A stretch of 46,701 nt of DNA, from the sequence record CP025712.1. One strand, written 5' to 3'. The number at the start of each line of letters is the position of its first letter. Positions within the stretch are counted from its first letter, which is position 1. The DNA is from Escherichia phage YDC107_1. This document shows, in pieces, positions 17,313 through 46,701 of this stretch. The notes beneath the pieces are model-generated. The model was not told the DNA's origin. It made no database searches and saw only the letters and a list, made by a program, of their open reading frames with translations. The position numbers and the translations under genes were made by a program.

Positions 17313-17390
17313 CGCCCCGTAGCCTGCCGGATCGCCGGAAAGGACCCGCAAAGGTGAGAATAATTATCACTTGCATTAATATCCAGCTTC

Positions 17391-27087: not shown

Positions 27088-27118
27088 GTTGTTATTATAA
27101 ACAATAAACAACAATTAA

Positions 27119-27156
27119 AGCCAGCTATAATAAATAAATTTTATAGCCAGCTATAA
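27119..27156. promoter_or_regulatory. Operator region between cro and cB: two AGCCAGCTATAA repeats
   Basis: Repeats at 27119-27130 and 27145-27156; the second lies in the near-palindrome TTATAGCCAGCTATAA; AT-rich promoter context. Confidence 0.5.
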
Positions 27157-27178
27157 GAAGATCATTTATGATTACAGT

Positions 27179-27775
27179 ATGAAAACACGAGGCGAACGAC
27201 TGAAAGCACGCCGTTTAGAGATGAAGCTGACGTTGCGAGAAGTTGCTGAGGCTGTCGATATCTCTATAGCAGGCGTCCAAAACTTAGAACGTGGCGACGT
27301 AATGCCGTCACTGGAGATAGGTATTGCCCTGGCTAAGTGCTTACGCAAGCCAGTGCATTGGGTGCTATATGGGACAGAATATGACCCTGATCGCATTCCT
27401 GTTATTGGCACAACTGAAAGTGGGCCGGATGAAGAGTGGAAGCCGGGACAGGTTCCAAATACTGAGCGATTCCTGCCATTCATCAGCCAGCGCAATACTG
27501 TGTATGCGTTAACTATCAGCAATCTTACGCAGGGAAACTATCAGCCAGGCGATTTTCTCCTGGTCGATTCTGCGCTGGAACTGGTCCCCGGCGAGGATGT
27601 TCTGGTTCGTGATACTGCAGGAAATATCACTATCCAGCGCCTGGCCCGTTTTGATGATGAAAATTACTATCTGGATGGAACAAACTCACAACGCGCCATC
27701 TTCAGGAAAAGCGATCTTGAATTTGTTCACCAAATAGTCGGAACGATCAAATCATTCATGGTTGAGGGTAGATGA
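27179..27775 (+). CDS. cB: Prophage repressor (N15 CB / lambda CI analogue): HTH plus degenerate LexA-like C-terminal domain
   Basis: 198 aa; N-terminal HTH LTLREVAEAVDISIAGVQNLERG. Confidence 0.8.
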   Translation: MKTRGERLKARRLEMKLTLREVAEAVDISIAGVQNLERGDVMPSLEIGIALAKCLRKPVHWVLYGTEYDPDRIPVIGTTESGPDEEWKPGQVPNTERFLPFISQRNTVYALTISNLTQGNYQPGDFLLVDSALELVPGEDVLVRDTAGNITIQRLARFDDENYYLDGTNSQRAIFRKSDLEFVHQIVGTIKSFMVEGR

Positions 27776-27869
27776 CTTAATACGGGGTTTATTGTTTGCT
27801 GTAAATCTGGTTTAATGCAGGGCATATGTTCTGTGGGTTGACTCAGGTTACAGCAGCAGAAAAAAGACG

Positions 27870-27905
27870 AAAAAAAACCCGAGTCGGCAAACTCGGGTCC
27901 TTTTC
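27870..27905. terminator. Bidirectional rho-independent terminator after the repressor gene
   Basis: A-run, CCCGAGT-CGGCAAA-ACTCGGG, then T-run. Confidence 0.5.
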
Positions 27906-28020
27906 AGGAAGCAGCCACAACAACGCGACAGATTCCGTCAATTCAAGATGCGTTTATTGTGGCTGCTCCTGCGGATTTTTTCAACCCGAAAAAACATAAT
28001 TCGCATGGAATGGCTAAAAA

Positions 28021-31000: not shown

Positions 31001-32004
31001 AACTACCGGTTGAAGAAGGCACGCTGAAATTCTATTTCGATGGTGCTCGAGACAAAATTCGCCGTTATGAAACGATGCTGCTTGATGAAGTCACAGCCCG
31101 TCGTTATGACCGTGAAGAAGCGGCTATCAATTTTACATACGCATACCGCCAGACCGGACAGTGGCAATATTTTGTGGTGACCGCGATGACACGCGAGCAG
31201 GCTGATGATGTATTCAAAGCGAAATTTCCGGGAATAATCGACTACAAGGTAAAAGCCACCCCAGCTGTTGAGGTCGGCATGCGCGGATTCTATGCGCTTA
31301 AATCAGCAACTCTCCGGCAGTATTTTATCGACTGCGGTATCGACCCTGAAACTATGACTGGCGAAGCGACGCAGGAACGCCTTAAGTTCGCTCGAGATAA
31401 TCTCATGACAGCAGAACGCCGTGACCTGTTGAATAACGTTCTGCGCATTGGTGGTTTTATGACACCAAAAGGGAAGCCTAAAGTGCCGGAAGCACTGTTT
31501 AAAAACATCTGCGACTCTCTCGGCCTAAAAACAGGAAAACGTCGCGGCAGAGATGGCGATAAGCGCCCGACATTGCGTTTTGTTGAGCCTGAGTCTGTAG
31601 CATTTATGCTTGATATTCTTACGCAACGTCAGGAGGACGGTATGACGTTGAAAGCTCGCAAGGCAGAAAAATCAACGACCGAAGTGGATCGCGATTTGTC
31701 ATTAAATATATATATGAATGGTGAAACGCGATCCACAAACACGGAGGAACAGGATCCCCCTCGTTCAGCTATATCACAGGCTTTGGCTGTATTGCCGGTG
31801 GCTGTTCCTGAGTCCTGGGCGATGAGTGCTCTGCCATCAGCCGAACTGGAATCTATCAGGGGGTGGTCAGTTGACAGCATCGCATACACGTTTGCAGCCC
31901 TTTATATGACTGAGTTTATGGATTTGCTGTCCGGTCATGAGATTAAGTTGCTGAAGGCTTTTATAGGCCCACGACATGCCAGCGATGAGTTTTGTGTAGT
32001 TTAG
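28021..32004 (+). CDS. repA: Replication protein: Toprim primase fused to a helicase/NTPase (N15 RepA / P4 alpha-like)
   Basis: 1327 aa; Toprim motifs (VTEGFATGASIW, ALDNDRKSATEGKG); Walker A GMGSGKST; Walker B-like FDEATQ. Confidence 0.9.
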   Translation: MTLNDFYADRFGSDPFSLIEAARDELTELAQMAGINWPACSDNIQLNPRGGVERYSSYNKTSPEALEKSLKGRVEIYSRLEHSKGIDYPFINFVHKGSDAGSWSGFSFLFSEYRREQQRNNATVVAQPEEERERIERQAEARRRREEQKRINDLKNNQMDHERLLGWLAFHSAWEHAQAEDGSWPYAIKKGIRDVFSSCDVRRVTSHDSAKWSRGPTTYMAIPLAHLDGRYDGRIVGWQRIDKQGGKYQTSAVTSGDFVGACFVIGELKGAQNIAVTEGFATGASIWLATKKDKRFDAVVVAVSANNMVHVVEQLVNMYPAAKITCALDNDRKSATEGKGNTGLRTGYEILSKFNDVRCVYPTFEDDPQMECSDFNDLHKLRGLRETARQLFATANRLKTGTDLLSLTLNRLKTIKRDNRRTFAKELLRAVDIGMLTCPVPNSPSDLFNMFCIVLREMGLENIYRATVKDHIARRLNKKCRIAQAPRSFSERITDPNKRPQHITYKRFETSVMTYDVLKYVQSLQGIVIVRAGMGSGKSTGLLRPLMHSSERGISVAHRVSLIGGLWEMMTEGKGVKADILHYQDPGYQEMAPYASKLTICINSIVKNCWQPLMRQHDYFGFDEATQGLRAVLSGRAMENPVAVFNTLIDALARTEQHPIMVDADANDLLVDLAELAMKRREELGLPAWLQIHVIELPVDVRNRETGEPIRVFYTEKDRIMTEVVKAVSDGEKIMLATDSSTFAEDVTATLRMHFPGKKFLCVNQKSKQDEEVDAFTNQPKVMVMKYDGLIYSPSISSGVSFEKKHFDRHFGMFCGEVVPSDAVQMLRRDRTAKEFIIGFDKARAKRETDPQKIERAFAQALLATAGMNGELTDVVFDGDRISMGVANTDFTRMKIKAAAIEASARNDYASNMICIMHSDGYKVSPLATDYAANDFGKELRKEARDIVWEQTLDLHLNTETPEESEREELLKKRALTLEEQAKLVRWDIENELKLPVEEGTLKFYFDGARDKIRRYETMLLDEVTARRYDREEAAINFTYAYRQTGQWQYFVVTAMTREQADDVFKAKFPGIIDYKVKATPAVEVGMRGFYALKSATLRQYFIDCGIDPETMTGEATQERLKFARDNLMTAERRDLLNNVLRIGGFMTPKGKPKVPEALFKNICDSLGLKTGKRRGRDGDKRPTLRFVEPESVAFMLDILTQRQEDGMTLKARKAEKSTTEVDRDLSLNIYMNGETRSTNTEEQDPPRSAISQALAVLPVAVPESWAMSALPSAELESIRGWSVDSIAYTFAALYMTEFMDLLSGHEIKLLKAFIGPRHASDEFCVV
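28383..28398. repeat. 16-bp core TGCGACCGTGGTCGCA, copy 5, inside repA
   Basis: Outer bases not complementary (16 of 18); mirrored copy at 45080-45097. Confidence 0.5.
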
Positions 32005-32021
32005 AGGGTAGAAGCGTGGGA

Positions 32022-32288
32022 ATGATGCAAGAGTGCCTCGTTTTGATTGAAGGGTATGATCCGTATGTTGTTAACGTCAGCAGAATGGATACTGGCTATA
32101 GCGACTACAAAACTGGTCGTGAACTGCCGTTCACCATCATCAGGATGAATAGCTTTGGCGATGATGATGCTGTTTATTGCTGTATAGCCAGCGATAAAAA
32201 CATGGAAGACCGGACAGATGAAGCCCGTATGCTATTGAGGAAATATAAGGTAAAGCCGTTATCAGAGAATAACGCTGAGAGGGGTTAA
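32022..32288 (+). CDS. Hypothetical protein
   Basis: From ATG MMQECLVLIEGYDP (ORF-track start 31992 is TTG). Confidence 0.45.
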   Translation: MMQECLVLIEGYDPYVVNVSRMDTGYSDYKTGRELPFTIIRMNSFGDDDAVYCCIASDKNMEDRTDEARMLLRKYKVKPLSENNAERG

Positions 32289-32290
32289 AA

Positions 32291-32686
32291 ATGGCAGTTC
32301 AATCATACAAATACGAATCCCCTTTGGATAAGGGATACATTCGTATCAAGTTAAGTCGTTCTCAGCATAAGGCTATTTTTAAGGTAAGGAAAATTCGCAT
32401 ATTGGATGCGTATGCGTATTACTACAACGGTGAAAATGTTGTTGTTGAACACTTTCTTGCACGATGGTTTGTAGCTCTGATTTTTGTCCCTCTCCTGTTA
32501 ATTGGTACTTTTGTGGATGGTTTTCCTAGTACATGGCGGGAGATAAAGAAAGGCCTATTCCCGCGTAAGTACGGCAGATTTTCGCAAGATAGCTGGCGAG
32601 TTATACCTGGTAAACATTCTGTGGATGAGCAGCCGATTGTTGATTACTGGTTGAAGCATATGGCTGATGCTAAAAAAGTTGATTGA
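32291..32686 (+). CDS. Hypothetical membrane protein
   Basis: 131 aa with SD GAGAGGGG; TM segment WFVALIFVPLLLIGTFV. Confidence 0.5.
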   Translation: MAVQSYKYESPLDKGYIRIKLSRSQHKAIFKVRKIRILDAYAYYYNGENVVVEHFLARWFVALIFVPLLLIGTFVDGFPSTWREIKKGLFPRKYGRFSQDSWRVIPGKHSVDEQPIVDYWLKHMADAKKVD

Positions 32687-32704
32687 GTTGTGGAAGGAGT
32701 ATTT

Positions 32705-32929
32705 ATGAACTGTAACAAAAATGAAGAAACTCGCCTGGTTTGGACGGTAGTAATCGGAGATAAAGAGGGCGGTGAAGAGCCTCATTTTGATTATTCTGTG
32801 GCTTTGCAGGCTCTCATCCTTGAAGCGCAGAGATACCAACAAGAGATGCAGAAGAACCCTCAACTGGAACCTCGACCAATTGGCCTATTCTGCGAGCGAG
32901 TATCAGCGGCGGAACTCCCTGATATCTGA
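32705..32929 (+). CDS. Hypothetical small acidic protein
   Basis: MNCNKNEETRLVWTVVIG…; SD GGAAGGA. Confidence 0.45.
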   Translation: MNCNKNEETRLVWTVVIGDKEGGEEPHFDYSVALQALILEAQRYQQEMQKNPQLEPRPIGLFCERVSAAELPDI

Positions 32930-33120
32930 TGCCCTCCAACAGCTGATCAGGTTCTGATCAGTTAGTAAAGCAAACTATAAAAACACCTGTCCCCGTGACT
33001 GGTCACGGGGTAAAATGTCTTTGCAAATTATTGACGTGTGCGTCGTTTTGACGGTAAAGTTACTTCGCTGCGGTAAATCCCGTAGCCGGGACTCTCAACC
33101 CCGAAATCCGAACGACGCAC

Positions 33121-33143
33121 AACACGCGCCAGCGTGTTTTTTT
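33121..33143 (+). terminator. Rho-independent terminator ending a short untranslated transcript upstream of the anti-repressor operon
   Basis: AACACGC-GCCA-GCGTGTT followed by a T-run. Confidence 0.45.
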
Positions 33144-33309
33144 GTGTGTATGAGCCTGCGCATATCCGAATTATGGTGGCTCAGGTGGGGCAGCCGAAAG
33201 GCTGGCCGGTGTCGTTTGGGCCGGTGTTGAGAACCCCGCTTGGGCTACCACCCCATAGAGATTCTCAACTCTGGTGGTAGCACTGTTTTACCAAACAAGA
33301 GTGCATACC

Positions 33310-33474
33310 ATGTTCAAATTCAAATTTGCGGCAGTCGTTCGCACAGACAAAAAGTCACACATCCATCATCTTTCCACCATCGCGTCATCTGAACGGGAAG
33401 CTCGTCGCCAGTTCGCCAGCCGGTTTGTCCTGGTATTGTCTGCCCGTATTCCGGTGCGCGAGGTGGCTGCATGA
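33310..33474 (+). CDS. Small protein, first gene of the anti-repressor operon (Icd-like position)
   Basis: 54 aa from MFKFKFAAVVRTDKK. Confidence 0.35.
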   Translation: MFKFKFAAVVRTDKKSHIHHLSTIASSEREARRQFASRFVLVLSARIPVREVAA

Positions 33475-33704
33475 ATCAGGTAAAAATGAACACTGTTGGC
33501 CTGCTGGAATCGTTGGATGAACGTCTGGCTCAGGTCTATGCGCTTGTGTCATCAGCCCATCGTACAGTCTCCAGTTGTGAGGCGTCGATTTATCTCTCAG
33601 AAGCCGGGAAGCTCCTTCAAATCGCGTGTGAGTTGACACACAAAGCACAGGGGTATTCAGCATCTCTCTCGTCGCAATTGCAGCACAATAAGGAGGCCAA
33701 ATGA
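33471..33704 (+). CDS. Hypothetical protein (anti-repressor operon)
   Basis: 77 aa, SD GAGGTGG, ATGA-coupled to neighbours. Confidence 0.45.
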   Translation: MNQVKMNTVGLLESLDERLAQVYALVSSAHRTVSSCEASIYLSEAGKLLQIACELTHKAQGYSASLSSQLQHNKEAK

Positions 33705-34477
33705 GCGCGTTAGCTGTATTTTCGTTTCAGGAAGAGCATCAGGTTCGTGTAGTGATGATTGATAGCGATCCGTGGTTTGTTGCATCTGATGTGTGTATGG
33801 CGGCGGGTATTGATTCTACGGCCATTAGAAAGTTGGATGAGGACGAAAAGGGTCTGCATTTAATGCAGACCCCTGGCGGATACCAGAATGTTTCAATCAT
33901 CAAGGAGTCAGGTCTATACACCCTAATCCTCCGCTGCCGTGACGCGGTGAAGCAAGGCACAACAGCTTGGCGGTTTCGCAAATGGGTAACGAACGAAGTC
34001 TTGCCCTCTATTCGCAAAAATGGAGAGTACGTTTACGTTGAGCCAGAGCCAATGCGAGCAGCAGAGCCGTTGAACTGGAGGCAGAAAGAGTATCTGCGAG
34101 GGCTGATTAACGATATTGCACAAAGTTTTCAATACCGAAATGCCTGGATTAGCGGTGTATGGTTGGCTTTGCGTCGGGCGTGTCGTAATCCATCCCCGAA
34201 CCCCATAACTGTTGATGATTTGCCAGCAATAACGGCAGAACTGCGACGGATTTTGACGGCTGCTGAGTCGGCATTGGGGAACATGCGCACGTATGAACGA
34301 GAGTTGTTGCGTGATGTTGTTCGTGGTGGTAGGCGGAGTATGTCGTGTGGTGATTTGCCCATCACCGATATCAACTCTGATCTGGAAAAGGCGTTACCCG
34401 CGCATTTTGAACTGGCAGTTCAAAAACTTGAGCAGTTGTCCGCGCAGCTAAAGCCAGCAGAAATCACCAATAAATAG
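33701..34477 (+). CDS. ant: Anti-repressor with Bro-N domain
   Basis: 258 aa; N-terminus FSFQEEHQVRVVMIDSDPWFVASDVCMAAGI… typical of Bro-N/Ant; SD AGGAGG. Confidence 0.75.
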   Translation: MSALAVFSFQEEHQVRVVMIDSDPWFVASDVCMAAGIDSTAIRKLDEDEKGLHLMQTPGGYQNVSIIKESGLYTLILRCRDAVKQGTTAWRFRKWVTNEVLPSIRKNGEYVYVEPEPMRAAEPLNWRQKEYLRGLINDIAQSFQYRNAWISGVWLALRRACRNPSPNPITVDDLPAITAELRRILTAAESALGNMRTYERELLRDVVRGGRRSMSCGDLPITDINSDLEKALPAHFELAVQKLEQLSAQLKPAEITNK

Positions 34478-34649
34478 GGTTGGCCAGCCCGAATTGATGC
34501 CCTTCTTAGTGAGGGGAAGCCTCGCAGTCTGGGCGGTGATGTCTGTGGTTGCAGCCGCGTTTCCTCCGTTACTTCTGCCCTTTGCAGGGGGCAGGCGAGG
34601 CAGGCCACATAACAAGGCACCGATTAATTCGGTGCCTTTAACGTATGCT

Positions 34650-36551
34650 TTAGCCGAAATATGTCAGCCATGCTAACTGCATTGCTGACATGGGGCTGTT
34701 TGCACTGCCTGACCACGCATAATTCTGGCCATTATAATGAAACTCAACAACGTATGAGCCATCACCAATATTTCTCACAGGCTTAAATACCGGCTTAGAT
34801 ACAGGTGAAGAAGGCGCGGGCGGTTGCTGTTCTTCTACGCTCTCTTCCTCTTCCTCTTCCTCTTCCTCTATCTCAATTTCGTCGTCATCCAGATCGTCAT
34901 CCTCTGATAATTCATCCGTCTGTTCAGGTATTGCTTCCAGCTCTTCTTCGTCAGGCATAACGATTTCTGGAGAATCTATTTTCAGCTGCCATTGTCCATT
35001 TTCGCCAACAAATTGCCCCAGAGCATCAGCAGCAAATTCCAGGTATCGACTAATCATTGTAGGGCTAAATTTGAATGCTCTTAGAGTGCTGTTCGTGATT
35101 TTTATAGAGGGGTCATGCTCTACCAGCTGCTTAACTGTGTTATGCAGACGAACCCCGGCATCTCCTCTGGCGAATCCTGGCATTTCGTCATCAAGCTGCT
35201 GCAATGCTTCCAGCCTGGTATTTTCGTTTCCAGTATTTGGCCTCCATGTCTTTGAGAAGTTGGCCAGCTTGAATTGCTTATAGTGTAATTGAGTGTTTTC
35301 ATCGTCATGGCCTAAAATTTCCATAAAGAAAACATCCTCATCTACGTTTTTCCAACGAGGATCTACGCGGAAAAACATTTCATACGCAATACGGGCATAA
35401 ATAGCACGACTATCTTTATAAACACGGCGGTCATCTTTGAAAAATGATTTAACCCACGGGTTAAAAGCCTTTGCTAATATGGCATTAATCCGTCCGTTTT
35501 CAGAGCGTGTGTCGTTATCTCCATAACCTTTAACGACATCATCAAAATCAGATGCTGCCGGGCATGAGCGAAGTACATTTATTAAATAAACAAATGTTTT
35601 TGCTTCGCATAATGTATATATTTTTCTGGTTATATCATCAGAAGTTCTTTTTTTTGCTTGGCCTAAAAAATCAACGGTATACTTACCAGAAACAGTAAAT
35701 GTACCTTGATACATAATCTCAATCATTCGTCTTCCTGACAATGCAGCAAGTGCAAATGCCAAAGGAGCCATACCTGAACGAGTGTTTAGATTATTTAATG
35801 TAGCAGGGCTATTTATAATATCGTAAATAGCTTGCATATATTTAGGGTAATCAATGACCACCACGTTACGTTTCTTATTGTGCAGAACGTCTGCCCATCG
35901 TTGCTGGATAGATGCGCGTTCGGCAGGGCTTAGTTGAAGATGATAGAGAATCTCATGGTTAACTTTTAGCTGATTCAACTCCTCAAGCAAGGCAGATCCT
36001 TGCTGTAGTAATTTATATAAATAATCGCGCTTATCTTTCCAGTTATCGCTAGTTAAATCAGAAATGGCGAATTGCCACTCTTTATATTTATTTGATAATT
36101 TTAATAACTTATTATGACTTTTGTTATCACCAATTCTGATATTAGATAAATCTTCTGATAAAGGGAGAATTAATTTTAATTTTGCCTGTAAAGCTGACAT
36201 TCTCTGGCGAATATCGGCAGCAGGTAGAGAAAGCCATGACAATAGCTCCTCATTATATAAAGGATACTTTTCAGATAGGCGATGTATATTTTTTTCAAAG
36301 CTATGATGAAGTTTATCATCAAACCGTTTTCTGGCCCTGCTCATATAGGTATTGAATGTGTTGGCTGTAATTCTTTTTTCTAATCCTTTCCCCCTAAACT
36401 TTCGCTTGTCATTAAATAATGCATTTTTAAACTTTAATGCAACAGCCTTTATTTTTTTTGTTTTCTCCCCTTGAGGACGGTCAGAGTTATCTATTGACTC
36501 AACATCGCTAACAAGTGAGTTTATTAATTCACCGATTTTTACTTTGCTCAT
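34650..36551 (-). CDS. telN: Protelomerase (TelN-like telomere resolvase)
   Basis: 633 aa; N-terminus MSKVKIGELINSLVSDVESIDNSDRPQGEKTKKIK… and length resemble N15 TelN as I recall; acidic C-terminal stretch; start 190 bp from the telRL-like palindrome. Confidence 0.88.
   Translation of the reverse strand: MSKVKIGELINSLVSDVESIDNSDRPQGEKTKKIKAVALKFKNALFNDKRKFRGKGLEKRITANTFNTYMSRARKRFDDKLHHSFEKNIHRLSEKYPLYNEELLSWLSLPAADIRQRMSALQAKLKLILPLSEDLSNIRIGDNKSHNKLLKLSNKYKEWQFAISDLTSDNWKDKRDYLYKLLQQGSALLEELNQLKVNHEILYHLQLSPAERASIQQRWADVLHNKKRNVVVIDYPKYMQAIYDIINSPATLNNLNTRSGMAPLAFALAALSGRRMIEIMYQGTFTVSGKYTVDFLGQAKKRTSDDITRKIYTLCEAKTFVYLINVLRSCPAASDFDDVVKGYGDNDTRSENGRINAILAKAFNPWVKSFFKDDRRVYKDSRAIYARIAYEMFFRVDPRWKNVDEDVFFMEILGHDDENTQLHYKQFKLANFSKTWRPNTGNENTRLEALQQLDDEMPGFARGDAGVRLHNTVKQLVEHDPSIKITNSTLRAFKFSPTMISRYLEFAADALGQFVGENGQWQLKIDSPEIVMPDEEELEAIPEQTDELSEDDDLDDDEIEIEEEEEEEEESVEEQQPPAPSSPVSKPVFKPVRNIGDGSYVVEFHYNGQNYAWSGSANSPMSAMQLAWLTYFG
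34842..34868. repeat. (CTCTTC)n hexanucleotide repeat inside telN, encoding a poly-Glu tract
   Basis: Four and a half tandem CTCTTC units; mirrored at about 38616-38642. Confidence 0.6.
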
Positions 36552-36714
36552 CTTTCCTCTCCTGATTATCCGCTCGGATTATCGTAACACAATTTGAGAA
36601 TAAGATAACTAATAACGCGTTAACTTAGGCACAAACTAACAGAACACAATAACGGATAATAAATAAAAACACAATATCGGAACGTTAAAATTTGTTCCTT
36701 GACTTTGTTCTGAA

Positions 36715-36770
36715 AATCAGCACATAATTTCCCATTATACGCGCGTATAATGGGAAATTATGTGCTGATT
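36715..36770. other. telRL-like telomere resolution site; centre of dyad symmetry between 36742 and 36743
   Basis: AATCAGCACATAATTT-CCCATTATACGCGCGTATAATGGG-AAATTATGTGCTGATT, same architecture as N15 telRL as I recall. Confidence 0.8.
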
Positions 36771-36933
36771 TTCAGAACAAAGTCAAGGAACAAATTTTAA
36801 CGTTCCGATATTGTGTTTTTATTTATTATCCGTTATTGTGTTCTGTTAGTTTGTGCCTAAGTTAACGCGTTATTAGTTATCTTATTCTCAAATTGTGTTA
36901 CGATAATCCGAGCGGATAATCAGGAGAGGAAAG

Positions 36934-38833
36934 ATGAGCAAAGTAAAAATCGGTGAATTAATAAACTCACTTGTTAGCGATGTTGAGTCAATAGATAACT
37001 CTGACCGTCCTCAAGGGGAGAAAACAAAAAAAATAAAGGCTGTTGCATTAAAGTTTAAAAATGCATTATTTAATGACAAGCGAAAGTTTAGGGGGAAAGG
37101 ATTAGAAAAAGAATTACAGCCAACACATTCAATACCTATATGAGCAGGGCCAGAAAACGGTTTGATGATAAACTTCATCATAGCTTTGAAAAAAATATAC
37201 ATCGCCTATCTGAAAAGTATCCTTTATATAATGAGGAGCTATTGTCATGGCTTTCTCTACCTGCTGCCGATATTCGCCAGAGAATGTCAGCTTTACAGGC
37301 AAAATTAAAATTAATTCTCCCTTTATCAGAAGATTTATCTAATATCAGAATTGGTGATAACAAAAGTCATAATAAGTTATTAAAATTATCAATAAATATA
37401 AAGAGTGGCAATTCGCCATTTCTGATTTAACTAGCGATAACTGGAAAGATAAGCGCGATTATTTATATAAATTACTACAGCAAGGATCTGCCTTGCTTGA
37501 GGAGTTGAATCAGCTAAAAGTTAACCATGAGATTCTCTATCATCTTCAACTAAGCCCTGCCGAACGCGCATCTATCCAGCAACGATGGGCAGACGTTCTG
37601 CACAATAAGAAACGTAACGTGGTGGTCATTGATTACCCTAAATATATGCAAGCTATTTACGATATTATAAATAGCCCTGCTACATTAAATAATCTAAACA
37701 CTCGTTCAGGTATGGCTCCTTTGGCATTTGCACTTGCTGCATTGTCAGGAAGACGAATGATTGAGATTATGTATCAAGGTACATTTACTGTTTCTGGTAA
37801 GTATACCGTTGATTTTTTAGGCCAAGCAAAAAAAAGAACTTCTGATGATATAACCAGAAAAATATATACATTATGCGAAGCAAAAACATTTGTTTATTTA
37901 ATAAATGTACTTCGCTCATGCCCGGCAGCATCTGATTTTGATGATGTCGTTAAAGGTTATGGAGATAACGACACACGCTCTGAAAACGGACGGATTAATG
38001 CCATATTAGCAAAGGCTTTTAACCCGTGGGTTAAATCATTTTTCAAAGATGACCGCCGTGTTTATAAAGATAGTCGTGCTATTTATGCCCGTATTGCGTA
38101 TGAAATGTTTTTCCGCGTAGATCCTCGTTGGAAAAACGTAGATGAGGATGTTTTCTTTATGGAAATTTTAGGCCATGACGATGAAAACACTCAATTACAC
38201 TATAAGCAATTCAAGCTGGCCAACTTCTCAAAGACATGGAGGCCAAATACTGGAAACGAAAATACCAGGCTGGAAGCATTGCAGCAGCTTGATGACGAAA
38301 TGCCAGGATTCGCCAGAGGAGATGCCGGGGTTCGTCTGCATAACACAGTTAAGCAGCTGGTAGAGCATGACCCCTCTATAAAAATCACGAACAGCACTCT
38401 AAGAGCATTCAAATTTAGCCCTACAATGATTAGTCGATACCTGGAATTTGCTGCTGATGCTCTGGGGCAATTTGTTGGCGAAAATGGACAATGGCAGCTG
38501 AAAATAGATTCTCCAGAAATCGTTATGCCTGACGAAGAAGAGCTGGAAGCAATACCTGAACAGACGGATGAATTATCAGAGGATGACGATCTGGATGACG
38601 ACGAAATTGAGATAGAGGAAGAGGAAGAGGAAGAGGAAGAGAGCGTAGAAGAACAGCAACCGCCCGCGCCTTCTTCACCTGTATCTAAGCCGGTATTTAA
38701 GCCTGTGAGAAATATTGGTGATGGCTCATACGTTGTTGAGTTTCATTATAATGGCCAGAATTATGCGTGGTCAGGCAGTGCAAACAGCCCCATGTCAGCA
38801 ATGCAGTTAGCATGGCTGACATATTTCGGCTAA
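36934..38833 (+). pseudogene. Mirror copy of telN, broken by two 1-bp homopolymer contractions
   Basis: ORF fragments 36934..37143, 37140..37430 and 37493..38833; first break is A6 to A5 at about 37107. Confidence 0.7.
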
Positions 38834-39005
38834 AGCATACGTTAAAGGCACCGAATTAATCGGTGCCTTGTTATGTGGCCTGCCTCGCCTGCCCCCTGCA
38901 AAGGGCAGAAGTAACGGAGGAAACGCGGCTGCAACCACAGACATCACCGCCCAGACTGCGAGGCTTCCCCTCACTAAGAAGGGCATCAATTCGGGCTGGC
39001 CAACC

Positions 39006-39782
39006 CTATTTATTGGTGATTTCTGCTGGCTTTAGCTGCGCGGACAACTGCTCAAGTTTTTGAACTGCCAGTTCAAAATGCGCGGGTAACGCCTTTTCCA
39101 GATCAGAGTTGATATCGGTGATGGGCAAATCACCACACGACATACTCCGCCTACCACCACGAACAACATCACGCAACAACTCTCGTTCATACGTGCGCAT
39201 GTTCCCCAATGCCGACTCAGCAGCCGTCAAAATCCGTCGCAGTTCTGCCGTTATTGCTGGCAAATCATCAACAGTTATGGGGTTCGGGGATGGATTACGA
39301 CACGCCCGACGCAAAGCCAACCATACACCGCTAATCCAGGCATTTCGGTATTGAAAACTTTGTGCAATATCGTTAATCAGCCCTCGCAGATACTCTTTCT
39401 GCCTCCAGTTCAACGGCTCTGCTGCTCGCATTGGCTCTGGCTCAACGTAAACGTACTCTCCATTTTTGCGAATAGAGGGCAAGACTTCGTTCGTTACCCA
39501 TTTGCGAAACCGCCAAGCTGTTGTGCCTTGCTTCACCGCGTCACGGCAGCGGAGGATTAGGGTGTATAGACCTGACTCCTTGATGATTGAAACATTCTGG
39601 TATCCGCCAGGGGTCTGCATTAAATGCAGACCCTTTTCGTCCTCATCCAACTTTCTAATGGCCGTAGAATCAATACCCGCCGCCATACACACATCAGATG
39701 CAACAAACCACGGATCGCTATCAATCATCACTACACGAACCTGATGCTCTTCCTGAAACGAAAATACAGCTAACGCGCTCAT
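39006..39782 (-). CDS. Mirror copy of the Bro-N anti-repressor gene (intact)
   Basis: Identical 258-aa translation to 33701..34477. Confidence 0.5.
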   Translation of the reverse strand: MSALAVFSFQEEHQVRVVMIDSDPWFVASDVCMAAGIDSTAIRKLDEDEKGLHLMQTPGGYQNVSIIKESGLYTLILRCRDAVKQGTTAWRFRKWVTNEVLPSIRKNGEYVYVEPEPMRAAEPLNWRQKEYLRGLINDIAQSFQYRNAWISGVWLALRRACRNPSPNPITVDDLPAITAELRRILTAAESALGNMRTYERELLRDVVRGGRRSMSCGDLPITDINSDLEKALPAHFELAVQKLEQLSAQLKPAEITNK

Positions 39783-40012
39783 TTGGCCTCCTTATTGTGC
39801 TGCAATTGCGACGAGAGAGATGCTGAATACCCCTGTGCTTTGTGTGTCAACTCACACGCGATTTGAAGGAGCTTCCCGGCTTCTGAGAGATAAATCGACG
39901 CCTCACAACTGGAGACTGTACGATGGGCTGATGACACAAGCGCATAGACCTGAGCCAGACGTTCATCCAACGATTCCAGCAGGCCAACAGTGTTCATTTT
40001 TACCTGATTCAT
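39779..40012 (-). CDS. Mirror copy of the 77-aa anti-repressor-operon gene
   Basis: Identical translation to 33471..33704. Confidence 0.4.
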   Translation of the reverse strand: MNQVKMNTVGLLESLDERLAQVYALVSSAHRTVSSCEASIYLSEAGKLLQIACELTHKAQGYSASLSSQLQHNKEAK

Positions 40013-40173
40013 GCAGCCACCTCGCGCACCGGAATACGGGCAGACAATACCAGGACAAACCGGCTGGCGAACTGGCGACGAGCTTCCCGTTCAGATGACG
40101 CGATGGTGGAAAGATGATGGATGTGTGACTTTTTGTCTGTGCGAACGACTGCCGCAAATTTGAATTTGAACAT
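40009..40173 (-). CDS. Mirror copy of the Icd-position small gene
   Basis: Identical translation to 33310..33474. Confidence 0.3.
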   Translation of the reverse strand: MFKFKFAAVVRTDKKSHIHHLSTIASSEREARRQFASRFVLVLSARIPVREVAA

Positions 40174-40553
40174 GGTATGCACTCTTGTTTGGTAAAACAG
40201 TGCTACCACCAGAGTTGAGAATCTCTATGGGGTGGTAGCCCAAGCGGGGTTCTCAACACCGGCCCAAACGACACCGGCCAGCCTTTCGGCTGCCCCACCT
40301 GAGCCACCATAATTCGGATATGCGCAGGCTCATACACACAAAAAAACACGCTGGCGCGTGTTGTGCGTCGTTCGGATTTCGGGGTTGAGAGTCCCGGCTA
40401 CGGGATTTACCGCAGCGAAGTAACTTTACCGTCAAAACGACGCACACGTCAATAATTTGCAAAGACATTTTACCCCGTGACCAGTCACGGGGACAGGTGT
40501 TTTTATAGTTTGCTTTACTAACTGATCAGAACCTGATCAGCTGTTGGAGGGCA

Positions 40554-40778
40554 TCAGATATCAGGGAGTTCCGCCGCTGATACTCGCTCGCAGAATAGGC
40601 CAATTGGTCGAGGTTCCAGTTGAGGGTTCTTCTGCATCTCTTGTTGGTATCTCTGCGCTTCAAGGATGAGAGCCTGCAAAGCCACAGAATAATCAAAATG
40701 AGGCTCTTCACCGCCCTCTTTATCTCCGATTACTACCGTCCAAACCAGGCGAGTTTCTTCATTTTTGTTACAGTTCAT
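40554..40778 (-). CDS. Mirror copy of the small acidic protein gene
   Basis: Identical translation to 32705..32929. Confidence 0.35.
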   Translation of the reverse strand: MNCNKNEETRLVWTVVIGDKEGGEEPHFDYSVALQALILEAQRYQQEMQKNPQLEPRPIGLFCERVSAAELPDI

Positions 40779-40796
40779 AAATACTCCTTCCACAAC

Positions 40797-41191
40797 TCAA
40801 TCAACTTTTTTAGCATCAGCCATATGCTTCAACCAGTAATCAACAATCGGCTGCTCATCCACAGAATGTTTACCAGGTATAACTCGCCAGCTATCTTGCG
40901 AAAATCTGCCGTACTTACGCGGGAATAGGCCTTTCTTTATCTCCCGCCATGTACTAGGAAAACCATCCACAAAAGTACCAATTAACAGGAGAGGGACAAA
41001 ATCAGAGCTACAAACCATCGTGCAAGAAAGTGTTCAACAACAACATTTTCACCGTTGTAGTAATACGCATACGCATCCAATATGCGAATTTTCCTTACCT
41101 TAAAAATAGCCTTATGCTGAGAACGACTTAACTTGATACGAATGTATCCCTTATCCAAAGGGGATTCGTATTTGTATGATTGAACTGCCAT
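40797..41191 (-). pseudogene. Mirror copy of the membrane-protein gene, frameshifted
   Basis: T5 to T4 contraction splits it into ORFs 40797..41018 and 40982..41191. Confidence 0.6.
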
Positions 41192-41193
41192 TT

Positions 41194-41460
41194 TTAACCC
41201 CTCTCAGCGTTATTCTCTGATAACGGCTTTACCTTATATTTCCTCAATAGCATACGGGCTTCATCTGTCCGGTCTTCCATGTTTTTATCGCTGGCTATAC
41301 AGCAATAAACAGCATCATCATCGCCAAAGCTATTCATCCTGATGATGGTGAACGGCAGTTCACGACCAGTTTTGTAGTCGCTATAGCCAGTATCCATTCT
41401 GCTGACGTTAACAACATACGGATCATACCCTTCAATCAAAACGAGGCACTCTTGCATCAT
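41194..41460 (-). CDS. Mirror copy of the hypothetical gene 32022..32288
   Basis: Identical translation. Confidence 0.35.
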   Translation of the reverse strand: MMQECLVLIEGYDPYVVNVSRMDTGYSDYKTGRELPFTIIRMNSFGDDDAVYCCIASDKNMEDRTDEARMLLRKYKVKPLSENNAERG

Positions 41461-41477
41461 TCCCACGCTTCTACCCT

Positions 41478-44400
41478 CTAAACTACACAAAACTCATCGC
41501 TGGCATGTCGTGGGCCTATAAAAGCCTTCAGCAACTTAATCTCATGACCGGACAGCAAATCCATAAACTCAGTCATATAAAGGGCTGCAAACGTGTATGC
41601 GATGCTGTCAACTGACCACCCCCTGATAGATTCCAGTTCGGCTGATGGCAGAGCACTCATCGCCCAGGACTCAGGAACAGCCACCGGCAATACAGCCAAA
41701 GCCTGTGATATAGCTGAACGAGGGGGATCCTGTTCCTCCGTGTTTGTGGATCGCGTTTCACCATTCATATATATATTTAATGACAAATCGCGATCCACTT
41801 CGGTCGTTGATTTTTCTGCCTTGCGAGCTTTCAACGTCATACCGTCCTCCTGACGTTGCGTAAGAATATCAAGCATAATGCTACAGACTCAGGCTCAACA
41901 AAACGCAATGTCGGGCGCTTATCGCCATCTCTGCCGCGACGTTTTCCTGTTTTTAGGCCGAGAGAGTCGCAGATGTTTTTAAACAGTGCTTCCGGCACTT
42001 TAGGCTTCCCTTTTGGTGTCATAAAACCACCAATGCGCAGAACGTTATTCAACAGGTCACGGCGTTCTGCTGTCATGAGATTATCTCGAGCGAACTTAAG
42101 GCGTTCCTGCGTCGCTTCGCCAGTCATAGTTTCAGGGTCGATACCGCAGTCGATAAAATACTGCCGGAGAGTTGCTGATTTAAGCGCATAGAATCCGCGC
42201 ATGCCGACCTCAACAGCTGGGGTGGCTTTTACCTTGTAGTCGATTATTCCCGGAAATTTCGCTTTGAATACATCATCAGCCTGCTCGCGTGTCATCGCGG
42301 TCACCACAAAATATTGCCACTGTCCGGTCTGGCGGTATGCGTATGTAAAATTGATAGCCGCTTCTTCACGGTCATAACGACGGGCTGTGACTTCATCAAG
42401 CAGCATCGTTTCATAACGGCGAATTTTGTCTCGAGCACCATCGAAATAGAATTTCAGCGTGCCTTCTTCAACCGGTAGTTTCAGTTCGTTCTCAATATCC
42501 CAGCGGACAAGTTTTGCCTGTTCTTCAAGCGTTAGCGCACGTTTTTTTAGTAGTTCTTCACGCTCTGATTCTTCTGGTGTCTCTGTATTGAGGTGCAGAT
42601 CCAGCGTCTGTTCCCACACAATATCCCGCGCTTCTTTGCGCAGCTCTTTACCAAAATCATTTGCGGCATAATCAGTAGCTAATGGCGATACCTTATAACC
42701 GTCGCTGTGCATGATGCAGATCATGTTGCTGGCGTAGTCGTTACGCGCAGACGCTTCAATAGCGGCAGCTTTAATTTTCATCCTGGTAAAGTCGGTATTG
42801 GCCACCCCCATTGATATACGGTCGCCATCGAAAACGACATCCGTCAGTTCACCGTTCATGCCTGCGGTAGCAAGTAATGCCTGGGCGAATGCACGTTCTA
42901 TTTTTTGCGGATCAGTCTCGCGTTTTGCACGAGCTTTATCAAAGCCGATAATAAATTCTTTTGCTGTACGGTCGCGGCGTAGCATTTGCACTGCGTCGCT
43001 GGGCACAACTTCACCGCAGAACATGCCGAAATGACGGTCAAAATGTTTTTTCTCAAATGACACCCCGGAGGAAATCGACGGGCTGTAGATCAGTCCATCG
43101 TATTTCATCACCATTACTTTTGGCTGGTTGGTAAAAGCATCGACTTCTTCATCCTGTTTGCTTTTCTGGTTTACGCACAGAAATTTCTTACCAGGAAAAT
43201 GCATTCTCAGGGTGGCGGTCACATCTTCTGCAAAGGTGGAGCTGTCGGTGGCCAACATGATTTTTTCGCCATCCGATACAGCTTTCACCACCTCGGTCAT
43301 GATGCGATCTTTTTCTGTATAAAAAACCCGGATTGGCTCACCTGTTTCGCGGTTGCGAACATCAACAGGTAATTCAATTACGTGGATCTGCAGCCATGCC
43401 GGTAAACCTAGTTCTTCACGGCGTTTCATAGCCAGTTCAGCCAGGTCAACCAGCAGATCGTTCGCATCAGCATCCACCATTATTGGGTGTTGTTCCGTTC
43501 TGGCCAGCGCGTCAATTAGCGTATTGAATACAGCCACTGGGTTTTCCATAGCCCGACCGGAAAGAACGGCACGTAGCCCTTGTGTGGCCTCGTCAAAGCC
43601 AAAATAGTCGTGCTGGCGCATCAACGGTTGCCAGCAGTTTTTAACAATCGAGTTTATGCAGATGGTCAGTTTACTGGCGTATGGAGCCATTTCCTGATAG
43701 CCAGGGTCCTGATAGTGCAGGATATCGGCTTTTACACCTTTTCCTTCAGTCATCATTTCCCACAGGCCACCAATAAGGGAAACACGGTGAGCTACAGAGA
43801 TACCGCGTTCTGAGCTATGCATTAACGGTCGTAACAATCCAGTAGATTTGCCGGAACCCATACCAGCACGAACGATGACGATCCCCTGTAGTGATTGCAC
43901 GTACTTCAGGACGTCATAGGTCATTACCGAAGTTTCAAAACGCTTATAGGTGATATGTTGAGGGCGTTTATTGGGATCAGTTATGCGTTCGCTGAAAGAG
44001 CGCGGAGCCTGGGCAATACGGCATTTTTTATTCAGGCGACGGGCAATGTGGTCTTTTACCGTAGCGCGATAGATATTTTCCAGCCCCATTTCACGCAGAA
44101 CGATACAGAACATGTTAAACAAATCTGACGGACTGTTAGGAACCGGACAGGTTAGCATGCCAATATCCACCGCTCTCAGCAGCTCTTTGGCAAAAGTACG
44201 ACGGTTATCCCGCTTAATTGTCTTCAGGCGGTTGAGCGTCAGAGATAGCAAATCAGTGCCGGTTTTCAGGCGGTTTGCTGTTGCAAATAGTTGACGTGCT
44301 GTTTCACGAAGTCCACGTAGTTTGTGCAGGTCGTTGAAGTCACTGCACTCCATTTGCGGATCGTCTTCAAAAGTTGGGTAGACGCAGCGGACATCGTTGA

Positions 44401-45458
44401 ATTTCGATAAGATTTCATAGCCAGTCCGCAGGCCGGTATTCCCTTTTCCTTCTGTGGCAGATTTCCGGTCATTATCCAGTGCGCAGGTGATTTTTGCCGC
44501 CGGGTACATGTTTACCAGTTGTTCCACAACATGAACCATGTTGTTAGCGGATACAGCGACAACCACCGCGTCAAAGCGTTTATCTTTTTTCGTGGCAAGC
44601 CAGATGGATGCACCAGTAGCAAAACCTTCTGTAACAGCGATGTTTTGCGCCCCTTTCAGCTCACCGATAACAAAGCAGGCACCGACGAAATCGCCGCTGG
44701 TTACTGCGCTGGTCTGGTATTTCCCACCTTGTTGTCGATTCGCTGCCAACCCACAATACGACCATCATAACGACCGTCCAGGTGAGCCAGAGGATAGCCA
44801 TATATGTGGTTGGCCCCCGGCTCCATTTCGCACTGTCGTGACTGGTCACGCGACGCACATCACATGAACTAAAAACGTCACGAATACCTTTTTTAATCGC
44901 ATATGGCCATGAGCCGTCTTCAGCCTGAGCATGTTCCCACGCGCTGTGGAATGCCAGCCATCCCAGCAAACGTTCATGGTCCATTTGGTTGTTTTTCAGG
45001 TCATTAATTCGTTTTTGTTCTTCACGGCGACGACGTGCTTCGGCCTGACGTTCTATTCTTTCCCGTTCTTCTTCCGGTTGTGCGACCACGGTCGCATTAT
45101 TCCGTTGTTGCTCACGGCGATATTCAGAAAACAGGAAGGAGAAACCGCTCCATGAGCCAGCATCGCTGCCTTTATGGACGAAGTTAATGAACGGGTAATC
45201 AATCCCTTTGCTGTGTTCCAGCCTGGAGTAAATTTCTACGCGTCCTTTCAGGCTCTTTTCGAGAGCTTCTGGAGATGTTTTATTGTATGAAGAGTAACGC
45301 TCAACCCCCCCGCGAGGGTTGAGTTGGATGTTGTCGGAACAGGCAGGCCAGTTGATACCAGCCATCTGTGCCAGCTCGGTTAGTTCATCCCGTGCTGCTT
45401 CAATTAGCGAGAACGGATCGCTGCCAAAGCGATCCGCATAGAAATCGTTTAATGTCAT
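41478..45458 (-). pseudogene. Mirror copy of repA, broken by at least three 1-bp contractions
   Basis: Fragments 41478..41876, 41837..44749 and 44661..45458; contractions TTT to TT, AAA to AA and CCC to CC checked by eye. Confidence 0.7.
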
Positions 45459-45703
45459 TTTTTAGCCATTCCATGCGAATTATGTTTTTTCGGGTTGAAA
45501 AAATCCGCAGGAGCAGCCACAATAAACGCATCTTGAATTGACGGAATCTGTCGCGTTGTTGTGGCTGCTTCCTGAAAAGGACCCGAGTTTGCCGACTCGG
45601 GTTTTTTTTCGTCTTTTTTCTGCTGCTGTAACCTGAGTCAACCCACAGAACATATGCCCTGCATTAAACCAGATTTACAGCAAACAATAAACCCCGTATT
45701 AAG

Positions 45704-46299
45704 TCATCTACCCTCAACCATGAATGATTTGATCGTTCCGACTATTTGGTGAACAAATTCAAGATCGCTTTTCCTGAAGATGGCGCGTTGTGAGTTTGTT
45801 CCATCCAGATAGTAATTTTCATCATCAAAACGGGCCAGGCGCTGGATAGTGATATTTCCTGCAGTATCACGAACCAGAACATCCTCGCCGGGGACCAGTT
45901 CCAGCGCAGAATCGACCAGGAGAAAATCGCCTGGCTGATAGTTTCCCTGCGTAAGATTGCTGATAGTTAACGCATACACAGTATTGCGCTGGCTGATGAA
46001 TGGCAGGAATCGCTCAGTATTTGGAACCTGTCCCGGCTTCCACTCTTCATCCGGCCCACTTTCAGTTGTGCCAATAACAGGAATGCGATCAGGGTCATAT
46101 TCTGTCCATATAGCACCCAATGCACTGGCTTGCGTAAGCACTTAGCCAGGGCAATACCTATCTCCAGTGACGGCATTACGTCGCCACGTTCTAAGTTTTG
46201 GACGCCTGCTATAGAGATATCGACAGCCTCAGCAACTTCTCGCAACGTCAGCTTCATCTCTAAACGGCGTGCTTTCAGTCGTTCGCCTCGTGTTTTCAT
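45704..46299 (-). pseudogene. Mirror copy of the cB repressor gene, frameshifted
   Basis: GGG to GG contraction; fragments 45704..46141 and 45967..46299. Confidence 0.65.
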
Positions 46300-46389
46300 A
46301 CTGTAATCATAAATGATCTTCTTATAGCTGGCTATAAAATTTATTTATTATAGCTGGCTTTAATTGTTGTTTATTGTTTATAATAACAA

Positions 46390-46611
46390 CATGAACCAGA
46401 AGAACTTATTCGCCATTTTGGCAGTGTAGAAAAAGCAGCGGCAGGGGTAGGTGTAACACCCGGAGCTGTTTACCAATGGTTAACCGCTGGAGAGATTCCT
46501 TCATTGCGGCAAAGCGATATTGAAGTTCGTACTGCTTATAAGCTGAAGAGTGACTTTACAACTCGGCGGGTAAAGCAGTCGATTAAGGAGAGTCGTAAGC
46601 GTGGAGCTTGA
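46390..46611 (+). pseudogene. Mirror copy of cro, frameshifted in the fourth codon
   Basis: ATGAAACCAG becomes ATGAACCAG, giving a stop after 12 codons. Confidence 0.6.
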
Positions 46612-46701
46612 GTATATACGCAGCTGCGTCTCTACGGCATTGGCTGATGTTCATTATCGCCAGCGTGGCATTCTGGAGGTCCAGCTTGAGCAGATGCGTC
46701 T
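46601..46701 (+). CDS. Mirror copy of the 236-aa early gene, partial (runs off the window end)
   Basis: GTG-started VELEYIRSCVSTALADVHYRQRGILEVQLEQMR matches the N-terminus of 26166..26876. Confidence 0.35.
   Translation, partial: MELEYIRSCVSTALADVHYRQRGILEVQLEQMR

Follow-up and report, generated by a model that had tools for sequence, protein, structure and literature searches.

Contigs that wrap around a hairpin end are known from PacBio contigs of the linear replicons of Borrelia (PMC10353223). For ONT, "terminal inverse duplications" of 5-18 kb have been reported in Borrelia (bioRxiv 10.1101/2025.07.18.665644). The Klebsiella linear-plasmid and telomere-phage papers PMC9453081 and PMC12042878 do not mention wrap-around assemblies.

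Here we examine an inverted repeat in Escherichia phage YDC107_1 (CP025712.1). We analyzed a stretch of 46,701 nt, which we will call the window. A sequence-only reading of the window had claimed that the two arms of the repeat differ only by 1-bp homopolymer contractions in the right arm, and that this reflects sequencing error instead of mutational decay. We will argue that the right arm is, with high probability, a long-read wrap-around of the covalently closed telL hairpin, and that the wrapped copy has the poorer consensus.

Most of an N15-family element

By its gene content, the element belongs among the N15-family linear plasmid-prophages ("telomere phages"). It encodes a protelomerase of the TelN/TelK type, a tel palindrome adjoins telN, and repA is found with cB, cro, and Q in the N15 order. 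By Megablast, the window matches N15 genes 33-38 and U45242 (cB, cro, Q). Across the arm, identity to the best annotated relatives is only about 96%. The window itself was not found in IMG/VR or the GTDB representative genomes, which were searched with the 54-nt tel palindrome, or in JGI metagenomes, which were searched with a 45-mer that spans error 8 (see below) and is specific to the right arm. The main features are:

1 to 36742, no strand: unique portion, which covers ~80% of an N15-family linear plasmid-prophage, from the middle of gene J to the telL end
26776 to 36742, plus strand: left arm, the authentic copy, with Q, cro, cB, repA, small ORFs, a Bro-N gene, telN, and the telL half-site
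36743 to 46701, minus strand: right arm, very probably a wrap-around copy of 26776-36742, with eight single-base homopolymer under-calls
26866 to 27114, minus strand: cro-like gene, intact on the left (P22_Cro in Pfam, E = 2.5e-22)
27179 to 27775, plus strand: cB-like repressor, intact on the left (helix-turn-helix and a weak S24 peptidase match)
28021 to 32004, plus strand: repA, primase/helicase-type replication protein of 1327 aa, intact; the right copy is broken three times
32291 to 32686, plus strand: ORF of 131 aa, intact on the left
34650 to 36551, minus strand: telN (protelomerase), 633 aa, intact; the right copy has breaks at 37106-37110 and 37391-37392
36716 to 36769, no strand: tel-site palindrome, folding between 36742 and 36743 (ATCAGCACATAATTTCCCATTATACGC before the fold, GCGTATAATGGGAAATTATGTGCTGAT after it)

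The telN ORF matches TelK_N, TelK_muzzle, ResT-TelK_cat, and TelK_stirrup from Pfam (E = 4.6e-25 to 1.4e-50), and each match far exceeds its curated cut-off. For repA, Herpes_ori_bp is above its cut-off (28.9 versus 20 bits), while Toprim_3 is under its cut-off; the counterparts of repA in relatives are annotated as "plasmid replication protein, CyRepA1 family." The 131-aa ORF, which the sequence-only reading called a membrane-protein gene, did not match any Pfam family. It has one hydrophobic segment at about aa 50-81 (Kyte-Doolittle windows above 1.6), and its product may lie in the membrane.

Position 1 of the window falls within the CDS of host-specificity gene J of NZ_CP019258.1 and OY754439.1. 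This corresponds to 8.3 kb from the end of the linear NZ_CP055678.1 and to 9.1 kb from the telR-telR center of CP088430.1. What is missing from the window is the 8-9 kb on the telR side: the rest of J, lom, the tail fibre, parAB/sop, and telR. (In relatives, the partition genes are near the telR-telR center.) The contig ends within gene J, so the absence of sopAB/parAB and of telR is due to truncation and is no argument against membership in the N15 family.

An inverted copy that lacks eight bases

A repeat search found a single inverted repeat in the window, split into eight gapless blocks, whose arms meet at 36742/36743 with a spacer of 0 nt. The right arm (9,959 nt) is the reverse complement of 26776-36742 (9,967 nt), which matches the net offset of 8 bp that had been noted before. 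Base 46701, which is the last base of the window and the end of the right arm, has base 26776 as its partner. The earlier start of the left arm, 26784, had assumed arms of equal length and was wrong.

In a global alignment of the arms, there were 8 indels and 0 substitutions. Each of the 8 differences is a homopolymer that lacks 1 nt in the right arm (six runs of 3 nt, one of 5 nt, and one of 6 nt), just as had been claimed. The same alignment had been proposed as the place where the claim could fail; it holds no substitution and no indel outside of homopolymers. If the eight bases are removed from the left arm, it becomes the exact reverse complement of the right arm. The eight sites are:

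46394 to 46395, plus strand, error 1: AA for the expected AAA in the copy of cro (left arm 27082, T3 to T2)
46106 to 46107, plus strand, error 2: CC for the expected CCC in the copy of cB (left arm 27371, G3 to G2)
44792 to 44793, plus strand, error 3: GG for the expected GGG in the copy of repA (left arm 28686, C3 to C2)
44732 to 44733, plus strand, error 4: TT for the expected TTT in the copy of repA (left arm 28747, A3 to A2)
41877 to 41878, plus strand, error 5: AA for the expected AAA in the copy of repA (left arm 31603, T3 to T2)
40998 to 41001, plus strand, error 6: A4 for the expected A5 in the copy of the 131-aa ORF (left arm 32481, T5 to T4)
37391 to 37392, plus strand, error 7: AA for the expected AAA in the copy of telN (left arm 36091, T3 to T2)
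37106 to 37110, plus strand, error 8: A5 for the expected A6 in the copy of telN (left arm 36374, T6 to T5)

All seven sites that the sequence-only reading named were correct, including the change from A6 to A5 at 37106-37110. It had missed the eighth, in telN (36091 in the left arm, 37391-37392 in the right).

Runs of 3 nt or more hold only 18% of the bases of the arm, and the probability that 8/8 differences would fall in such runs is 1.1e-6. The probability that 8/8 would be on one arm is 0.008, and given the right arm's share of the contig's length, the probability that 8/8 would be in that arm is 4.6e-6. On this alignment, the distal arm has the poorer consensus.

Within the arm, we tested for crowding of the eight errors toward the end of the contig and did not find it to be significant (KS p = 0.38; the outer 2 kb holds 4/8, p = 0.057). 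With this KS result on 8 errors, a simple model of tapering depth was not demonstrated.

The run-length spectrum of the deletions differs from the classic long-homopolymer signature of nanopore data: 3-nt runs take 6/8 deletions, and of the 21 runs of at least 6 nt, 20 have no deletion. We rejected the idea of naming the sequencing platform from this spectrum, which leaves it undecidable. By eye, none of the eight error contexts contains a Dam (GATC) or Dcm (CCWGG) motif.

Errors or decay

A location in a homopolymer cannot by itself tell an error from a mutation, and other arguments carry the case.

At 8/8 sites, the run length of the left arm is also found in PhiR46_1, CP088379.1, and NZ_CP014491.1, which are three independent relatives. 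Also, as had been reported, the ORF lists show that telN, repA, cB, cro, and the 131-aa ORF are intact on the left arm and fragmented on the right. Because the run lengths of the relatives match the left arm and its ORFs are intact, we consider the left arm to be authentic. And since the arms differ at all, they were presumably called independently, which would exclude a graph walk that re-used one unitig.

The right arm could instead be one half of a genuine inverted duplication that is decaying by frameshift (pseudogenization). The genes of the right arm are disrupted, as this proposal requires, and real indel mutations favor homopolymers as well. But the natural divergence of this lineage looks quite different: over 21.7 kb, the window differs from NZ_CP019258.1 by 131 substitutions and by 0 indels, versus 0 substitutions and 8 indels in the 9,959 nt of the right arm. 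Decay should leave substitutions beside indels and changes on both copies, but one arm bears 8/8 changes, and every one is a deletion. A spacer-free repeat that is centered exactly on the target of TelN would also be cut by the intact TelN, and it is established that SbcCD cleaves long perfect palindromes in E. coli (cited in PMC12624138). Furthermore, the same structure, with other arm lengths, is found in unrelated assemblies. We give this explanation almost no credence.

Given that the relatives side with the left arm, that there are 0 substitutions beside 8 indels, and that all of the deletions are in the distal arm, the comparison supports the view that the eight "frameshifts" of the right arm are sequencing or consensus errors, not decay. 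This agrees with the sequence-only reading.

That reading also warned that single-base frameshifts elsewhere in the contig might not be biological. Relative to both close relatives, we found two more 1-nt deletions, both in gene J and less than 400 nt from the left end of the contig:

19 to 19, minus strand: probable error in gene J, a lone T for the TT of both close relatives, which shifts the frame of J
396 to 397, minus strand: probable error in gene J, CC for the CCC of both close relatives, which shifts the frame of J

These two are probably errors too. Between 397 and 36742, we found no further 1-nt frameshift deletions relative to the relatives, so the warning was apt for the left end but not for the rest of the unique part.

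The fold is at the center of a tel site

The fold point is the exact dyad center of an N15-like tel site (CCCATTATACGC to its left and GCGTATAATGGG to its right). The half-site in the window is identical to the N15 telR half-site at 25/28 positions (PMC12624138). Its telO-type core, CCATTATACGCGCGTATAATGG, exactly matches the sequence that is annotated as telL site in PhiR46_1; that annotation covers the same sequence and lies at the end of the record. The intact protelomerase gene is 191 nt from the fold point.

In the true telRL sites of two IMG/VR contigs (L010 and L012), perfect symmetry ends after only 27 nt on each side, and beyond that the flanks differ. When we extended the palindrome in the window, it was perfect for 368 nt per side, with the telL flank ...TTGTTCTGAAA on both. 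Because the telL flank occurs on both sides of the fold, the junction is telL-telL and not a natural telRL.

Long-read libraries do contain palindromic chimeric reads. So the fold might be an artefact of the assembler or scaffolder that involves no hairpin, such as an extended chimeric read of this kind or an artefact of library preparation. However, a random chimera is unlikely to turn at the exact dyad center of tel, beside telN, and independent assemblies, as well as IMG/VR contigs, turn at the same nucleotide. We consider a non-hairpin artefact to be very improbable.

Fold-backs in related assemblies

Several related records fold back as well. CP088379.1 (36.6 kb) is a perfect palindrome of 18,297 nt, with 0 differences between its arms. 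In NZ_CP031108.1 (27.2 kb), 1-nt homopolymer indels account for 6/8 differences between the arms. NZ_CP014491.1 (62.6 kb) folds back over at least 7.6 kb; its distal arm has 2 homopolymer deletions, and there is one substitution at the apex. The 91.5-kb "circular plasmid" CP088430.1 consists simply of the two strands of a single 46-kb linear molecule: its telR-telR and telL-telL centers are 45,430 and 46,095 nt apart, and its halves have 745 differences (674 indels, 79% of them in homopolymers, and 71 substitutions). IMG/VR contigs L013 (telL-telL) and L007 (telR-telR) are more examples. A fold-back of this type is an ordinary, known artefact.

The repeat in the window has zero spacer, folds at the tel dyad center, is flanked by telL on both sides, and has only error-type differences between its arms. 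We favor a hairpin wrap-around because the fold is at the tel center beside telN, because the junction is telL-telL, and because independent assemblies have the same fold-backs and the same type of error. The sequence-only reading had also leaned toward an artefact or a hairpin, and the tel center, the telL-telL junction, and the recurrent wrap-arounds in public assemblies bear this out.

We propose the following scenario. The TelN protelomerase would make the covalently closed hairpin ends of the linear plasmid-prophage. A linear duplex with closed ends forms a single continuous strand, so a long read that passes the telL hairpin would enter the complementary strand. The assembler would then have run the contig beyond the true end at 36742 with this read-back, which would give the 9,959-nt inverted copy with zero spacer. 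The data behind the wrapped copy were presumably fewer, or less usable, than those behind the authentic one. It has eight single-base homopolymer under-calls, and these split the wrapped telN, repA, cB, cro, and 131-aa ORF. We infer that the data were long reads, that a read-through did occur with a hairpin and not a replication intermediate as the template, and that depth or mapping ambiguity led to the poorer consensus.

A physical molecule could have the same junction. N15 replicates via a dimeric circular intermediate, and TelN cuts telLL/telRR (PMC12624138, citing Ravin 2001/2003). A replication intermediate, or a head-to-head or stable inverted dimer, might contain a double-stranded telL-telL junction that TelN has not resolved. 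The junction sequence would be identical to that of a hairpin read-through, and the data on the tel center and on the flanks fit equally well. The molecule would need to be abundant enough in the sample to assemble, and the eight differences would still be consensus errors. However, the cited replication model implies that every prophage molecule is always hairpinned and that these junctions are transient, and with telN intact on the left arm, efficient resolution is expected. Also, fold-backs are routine in unrelated assemblies of the family and in Borrelia, where they were attributed to hairpin wrap-around (PMC10353223). We think that a physical telL-telL molecule is unlikely.

Implications for annotation

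If the right arm is a hairpin wrap-around, then bases 36743-46701 should be trimmed, and it would be wrong to call the broken duplicates of telN, repA, cB, cro, and the 131-aa ORF pseudogenes. The fold point marks the exact telL end of the phage-plasmid, at 36742. It is also good indirect evidence for a linear molecule that is capped by a hairpin.

At 46.7 kb, the contig mimics a full-length genome of the family, but it is really about 80% of a genome plus a 21% duplicate. Because of this, estimates of completeness that are based on length would be misled. The same artefact also stands uncorrected in public records of this family that are labeled as complete circular plasmids, where it leads to inflated plasmid sizes and to spurious pseudogenes. 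The value of the finding is practical, as a flag for quality control, and not conceptual.

Comparison to known systems

Like the wrap-arounds of Borrelia, the repeat in the window is a zero-spacer inverted repeat at the presumed end of a contig, has its center on a telomere-resolution site, and extends over kilobases (10 kb here, 5-18 kb there). There, as here, such a structure is read as a sign that the end is a closed hairpin, and the repeated sequence is to be trimmed. In contrast to Borrelia, the replicon is an N15-type phage-plasmid of E. coli instead of a Borrelia chromosome or plasmid, and the target is the tel site of TelN instead of that of ResT. Also, only one telomere is reached, and the wrapped copy retains eight uncorrected homopolymer errors.

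The element shares with the TelN/telRL system of phage N15 (Deneke 2000, Ravin 2001/2003, cited in PMC12624138) a four-domain protelomerase, the tel half-site (at 25/28 positions), and the gene order telL-telN-...-repA-cB-cro-Q. But DNA identity to N15 is only about 77-78%, over roughly 30% of the arm. Unlike N15, the element belongs to a lineage similar to PhiR46_1 and pG749_3 (95-96% identity).

The structure is also shared with the fold-back records CP088430.1, NZ_CP014491.1, CP088379.1, and NZ_CP031108.1, which have the same tel center and two protelomerase genes that face each other. As in the window, homopolymer indels on one arm split repA or telN in public "complete circular plasmid" records with fold-backs. 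Arm lengths and error loads vary among these records, from 0 differences in CP088379.1 to 745 in CP088430.1. Some of them were closed into circles, whereas the window is linear and reaches telL only.

The arms differ by single-base losses from one arm

A repeat search found one large inverted repeat in the window, whose arms abut at 36742/36743. The repeat comprises eight gapless blocks (98-100% complementary), and at every block boundary the register slips by one base, as is characteristic of single-base indels. In a global alignment of 26776-36742 (the left arm) with the reverse complement of 36743-46701 (the right arm), we found eight differences and no substitutions. Every difference (8/8) is the loss of one base from a homopolymer in the right arm:

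Differences between the arms, from the global alignment (left-arm position; run in the left arm, then in the right arm)
27082: cro, T3 to T2
27371: cB, G3 to G2
28686: repA, C3 to C2
28747: repA, A3 to A2
31603: repA, T3 to T2
32481: 131-aa ORF, T5 to T4
36091: telN, T3 to T2 (right-arm 37391-37392)
36374: telN, T6 to T5

Removing these eight bases from the left arm yields exactly the right arm. An earlier sequence-only reading had described the differences as 1-bp homopolymer contractions in the right arm, and the alignment agrees. All seven of the sites it listed are correct, and the 8-bp offset it reported is explained by an eighth site, the second telN deletion at right-arm 37391-37392. 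Because of this offset, the left arm starts at 26776, not at 26784 as that reading had it. Runs of three or more account for just 18% of arm bases, so the chance that eight random deletions all hit such runs is P = 1.1e-6. For all eight to be on one arm, P = 0.008.

The left arm is authentic

Phage PhiR46_1 and a group of plasmid-prophages from E. coli, Shigella, and E. fergusonii share 95-96% identity with the arm; for N15 and phiKO2, identity is about 75-78% across the replication/immunity region. The arm encodes a protelomerase:

34650-36551, minus strand: telN, with all four protelomerase domains (Pfam), far above the curated cut-offs

As identified with Pfam, the neighbours of telN include Cro, an HTH/S24-type repressor, antiterminator Q, a Bro-N protein, and a RepA-type replication protein; 1-26775 contains lambdoid head, tail, and lysis genes. 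This element is an N15-family "telomere phage." Such phages are kept as linear plasmids with hairpin ends (PMC12624138; PMC12042878).

The left-arm ORFs for RepA (1327 aa), TelN (633 aa), the repressor (198 aa), Cro (82 aa), and a 131-aa protein are intact, and their right-arm copies are fragmented. At 8/8 sites, three independent relatives (PhiR46_1, PV340565.1; CP088379.1; NZ_CP014491.1) have the run length of the left arm. Between 5801-27500 of the window and NZ_CP019258.1, there are 131 substitutions and 0 indels over 21.7 kb: substitutions predominate in the natural divergence of this lineage. Eight one-sided deletions with no substitutions are therefore not mutational decay, and we reject the idea that the right arm is a genuine duplicate that is decaying. 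Also, the repeat is positioned on the target of TelN, and long palindromes are known to be unstable. Sequencing error, as the earlier reading proposed, accounts for the one-sided deletions and for the relatives' match to the left arm.

At 34623-34624, and at its mirror in the right arm, the window has one base more than three relatives, within a small terminator-like palindrome (CACCGATTAATTCGGTG) that lies 26 nt past the telN stop codon. Because both arms carry this base, it probably reflects true intergenic variation and not an error. The 131-aa ORF (32291-32686) is conserved, with one hydrophobic segment (about amino acids 50-81) and no Pfam family; its tested site is identical across all relatives.

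The arms fold at a telomere site

The sequence at the arm junction is CCCATTATACGC|GCGTATAATGGG. The 28 nt on each side are 25/28 identical to the tel half-site of N15 (sequence from PMC12624138), and the same 22-nt core is annotated as "telL site" at the end of the PhiR46_1 record. The fold point is 191 nt from the start codon of telN.

A scan of IMG/VR found the 54-nt core in seven contigs. In L010 and L012, the symmetry extends for only 27 nt per side before the flanks diverge (telL, ...TTGTTCTGAAA; telR, ...CAAGAACAT). Both are the natural uncut site (telRL), in its circular or virion form. In L013 the flank is that of telL on either side, and in L007 it is that of telR on either side:

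L010, 2659-2712, and L012, 4909-4962: telRL, 54-nt perfect core with different flanks
L013, 1733-1786: telL|telL fold-back
L007, 12722-12775: telR|telR fold-back

All three types of junction in this phage family are thus represented in IMG/VR. L008, L009, and L011 have short wraps (34-99 nt) at contig ends, which look like short-read assemblies running just beyond the hairpin tip.

In the window, the telL flank is present in both arms, and the palindrome stays perfect over 368 nt on each side until the first error interrupts it, so the junction is telL|telL. Either a pass round the telL hairpin or a read through a telL junction that had been replicated would give this sequence. A random chimeric read would have no reason to turn at the exact tel centre, and would not be expected to recur there across independent assemblies.

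Fold-backs in public records

Four GenBank/RefSeq "complete circular plasmids" of 27-92 kb are hairpin wrap-arounds of roughly 46-kb linear phage-plasmids of this family, and all four have duplicated protelomerase genes that face each other. CP088379.1, recorded as a 36.6-kb circular plasmid, is a perfect palindrome of 18,297 nt. NZ_CP031108.1 is a 27.2-kb fold-back; of its eight arm differences, six are 1-nt indels in homopolymers, and only one arm has a split repA. In NZ_CP014491.1, the fold-back is at least 7.6 kb, and the arms differ only by one substitution and by two 1-nt deletions in homopolymers of the distal arm. This sole inter-arm substitution is at the hairpin apex (locus 34968/34969, ACGC|ACGT instead of ACGC|GCGT), and is either a miscall made where the strand turns or an apex base that is truly unpaired. 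In CP088430.1 (91.5 kb, "circular"), the telR|telR and telL|telL centres are 45,430 and 46,095 nt apart: the record consists of the two strands of a single linear molecule of roughly 46 kb. Between the two halves there are 71 substitutions and 674 indels, 79% of the indels being in homopolymers.

Among RefSeq complete E. coli genomes, two arm copies are present in 7/18 records that carry this phage family, and 5/7 of those are of aberrant size.

Separately, NZ_CP014491.1 is one C short at the C6 run at window 9108 (locus 4458-5035), and the tail gene is "frameshifted" in RefSeq; this is a homopolymer error in NZ_CP014491.1, not in the window.

Other frameshifts are confined to the left end

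The host-specificity gene J has its reading frame shifted twice, less than 400 nt from the left end:

19, minus strand: gene J, 1-nt deletion (single T for TT in both close relatives)
396-397, minus strand: gene J, 1-nt deletion (CC for CCC in both close relatives)

These are probably consensus errors like those of the right arm. Beyond these two, 1-17698 has no non-triplet gap relative to OY754439.1, and 5801-27500 has zero gaps relative to NZ_CP019258.1. The warning that single-base frameshifts elsewhere might not be biological thus holds for the left end but not for the rest, including the left arm, which matches relatives at 8/8 sites. Error-type indels are restricted to both extremities of the window, which fits a poorer consensus at contig ends. 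The implication is that the contig truly ends at the left end of the window. Position 1 falls within J, and comparison with relatives shows that the 8.3-9.1 kb to telR is absent (the rest of J, lom, a tail fibre gene, and parAB/sop). The contig is therefore about 80% of a genome plus a 21% duplicate. Coincidentally, its total of 46,701 nt is typical of the family's complete genomes (45-48 kb among relatives).

Reading through a hairpin probably explains the fold-back

TelN cleaves the tel site and closes both ends into covalently sealed hairpins (Deneke 2000, Ravin 2001/2003, cited in PMC12624138). A linear molecule with such caps is, topologically, a single-stranded circle twice as long as the genome, and a long-read sequencer that reaches a hairpin runs on into the complementary strand. 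A physical telL|telL junction, from a replication intermediate or an inverted dimer, would have an identical sequence, but it is less likely: hairpins are constitutive while such junctions are transient, and telN is intact.

That the arms differ at all means that the consensus of each was called separately. This points to a long-read assembly built from overlaps, not to a graph walk that used one unitig twice. Plausibly, the wrapped arm is poorer due to lower depth, as only reads that pass the hairpin contribute, or due to ambiguous read placement in polishing. The errors in the right arm are not significantly concentrated toward the contig end.

The fold at the tel centre, the telL|telL junction, and the recurrence in public assemblies support the artefact or hairpin interpretation of the sequence-only reading. 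Neither the right arm nor its frameshifts are biological; they are a known assembly artefact, which incidentally marks a structure that is real and was known before: the telL hairpin of an N15-type phage-plasmid. The same hairpin fold-back is present in public records of this phage family, and the window adds another case. Read-through of hairpin ends is also documented in Borrelia, whose PacBio contigs wrap around at such ends (PMC10353223) and whose ONT assemblies have terminal inverse duplications of 5-18 kb (bioRxiv 10.1101/2025.07.18.665644), and the fold-back in the window is probably the same phenomenon.
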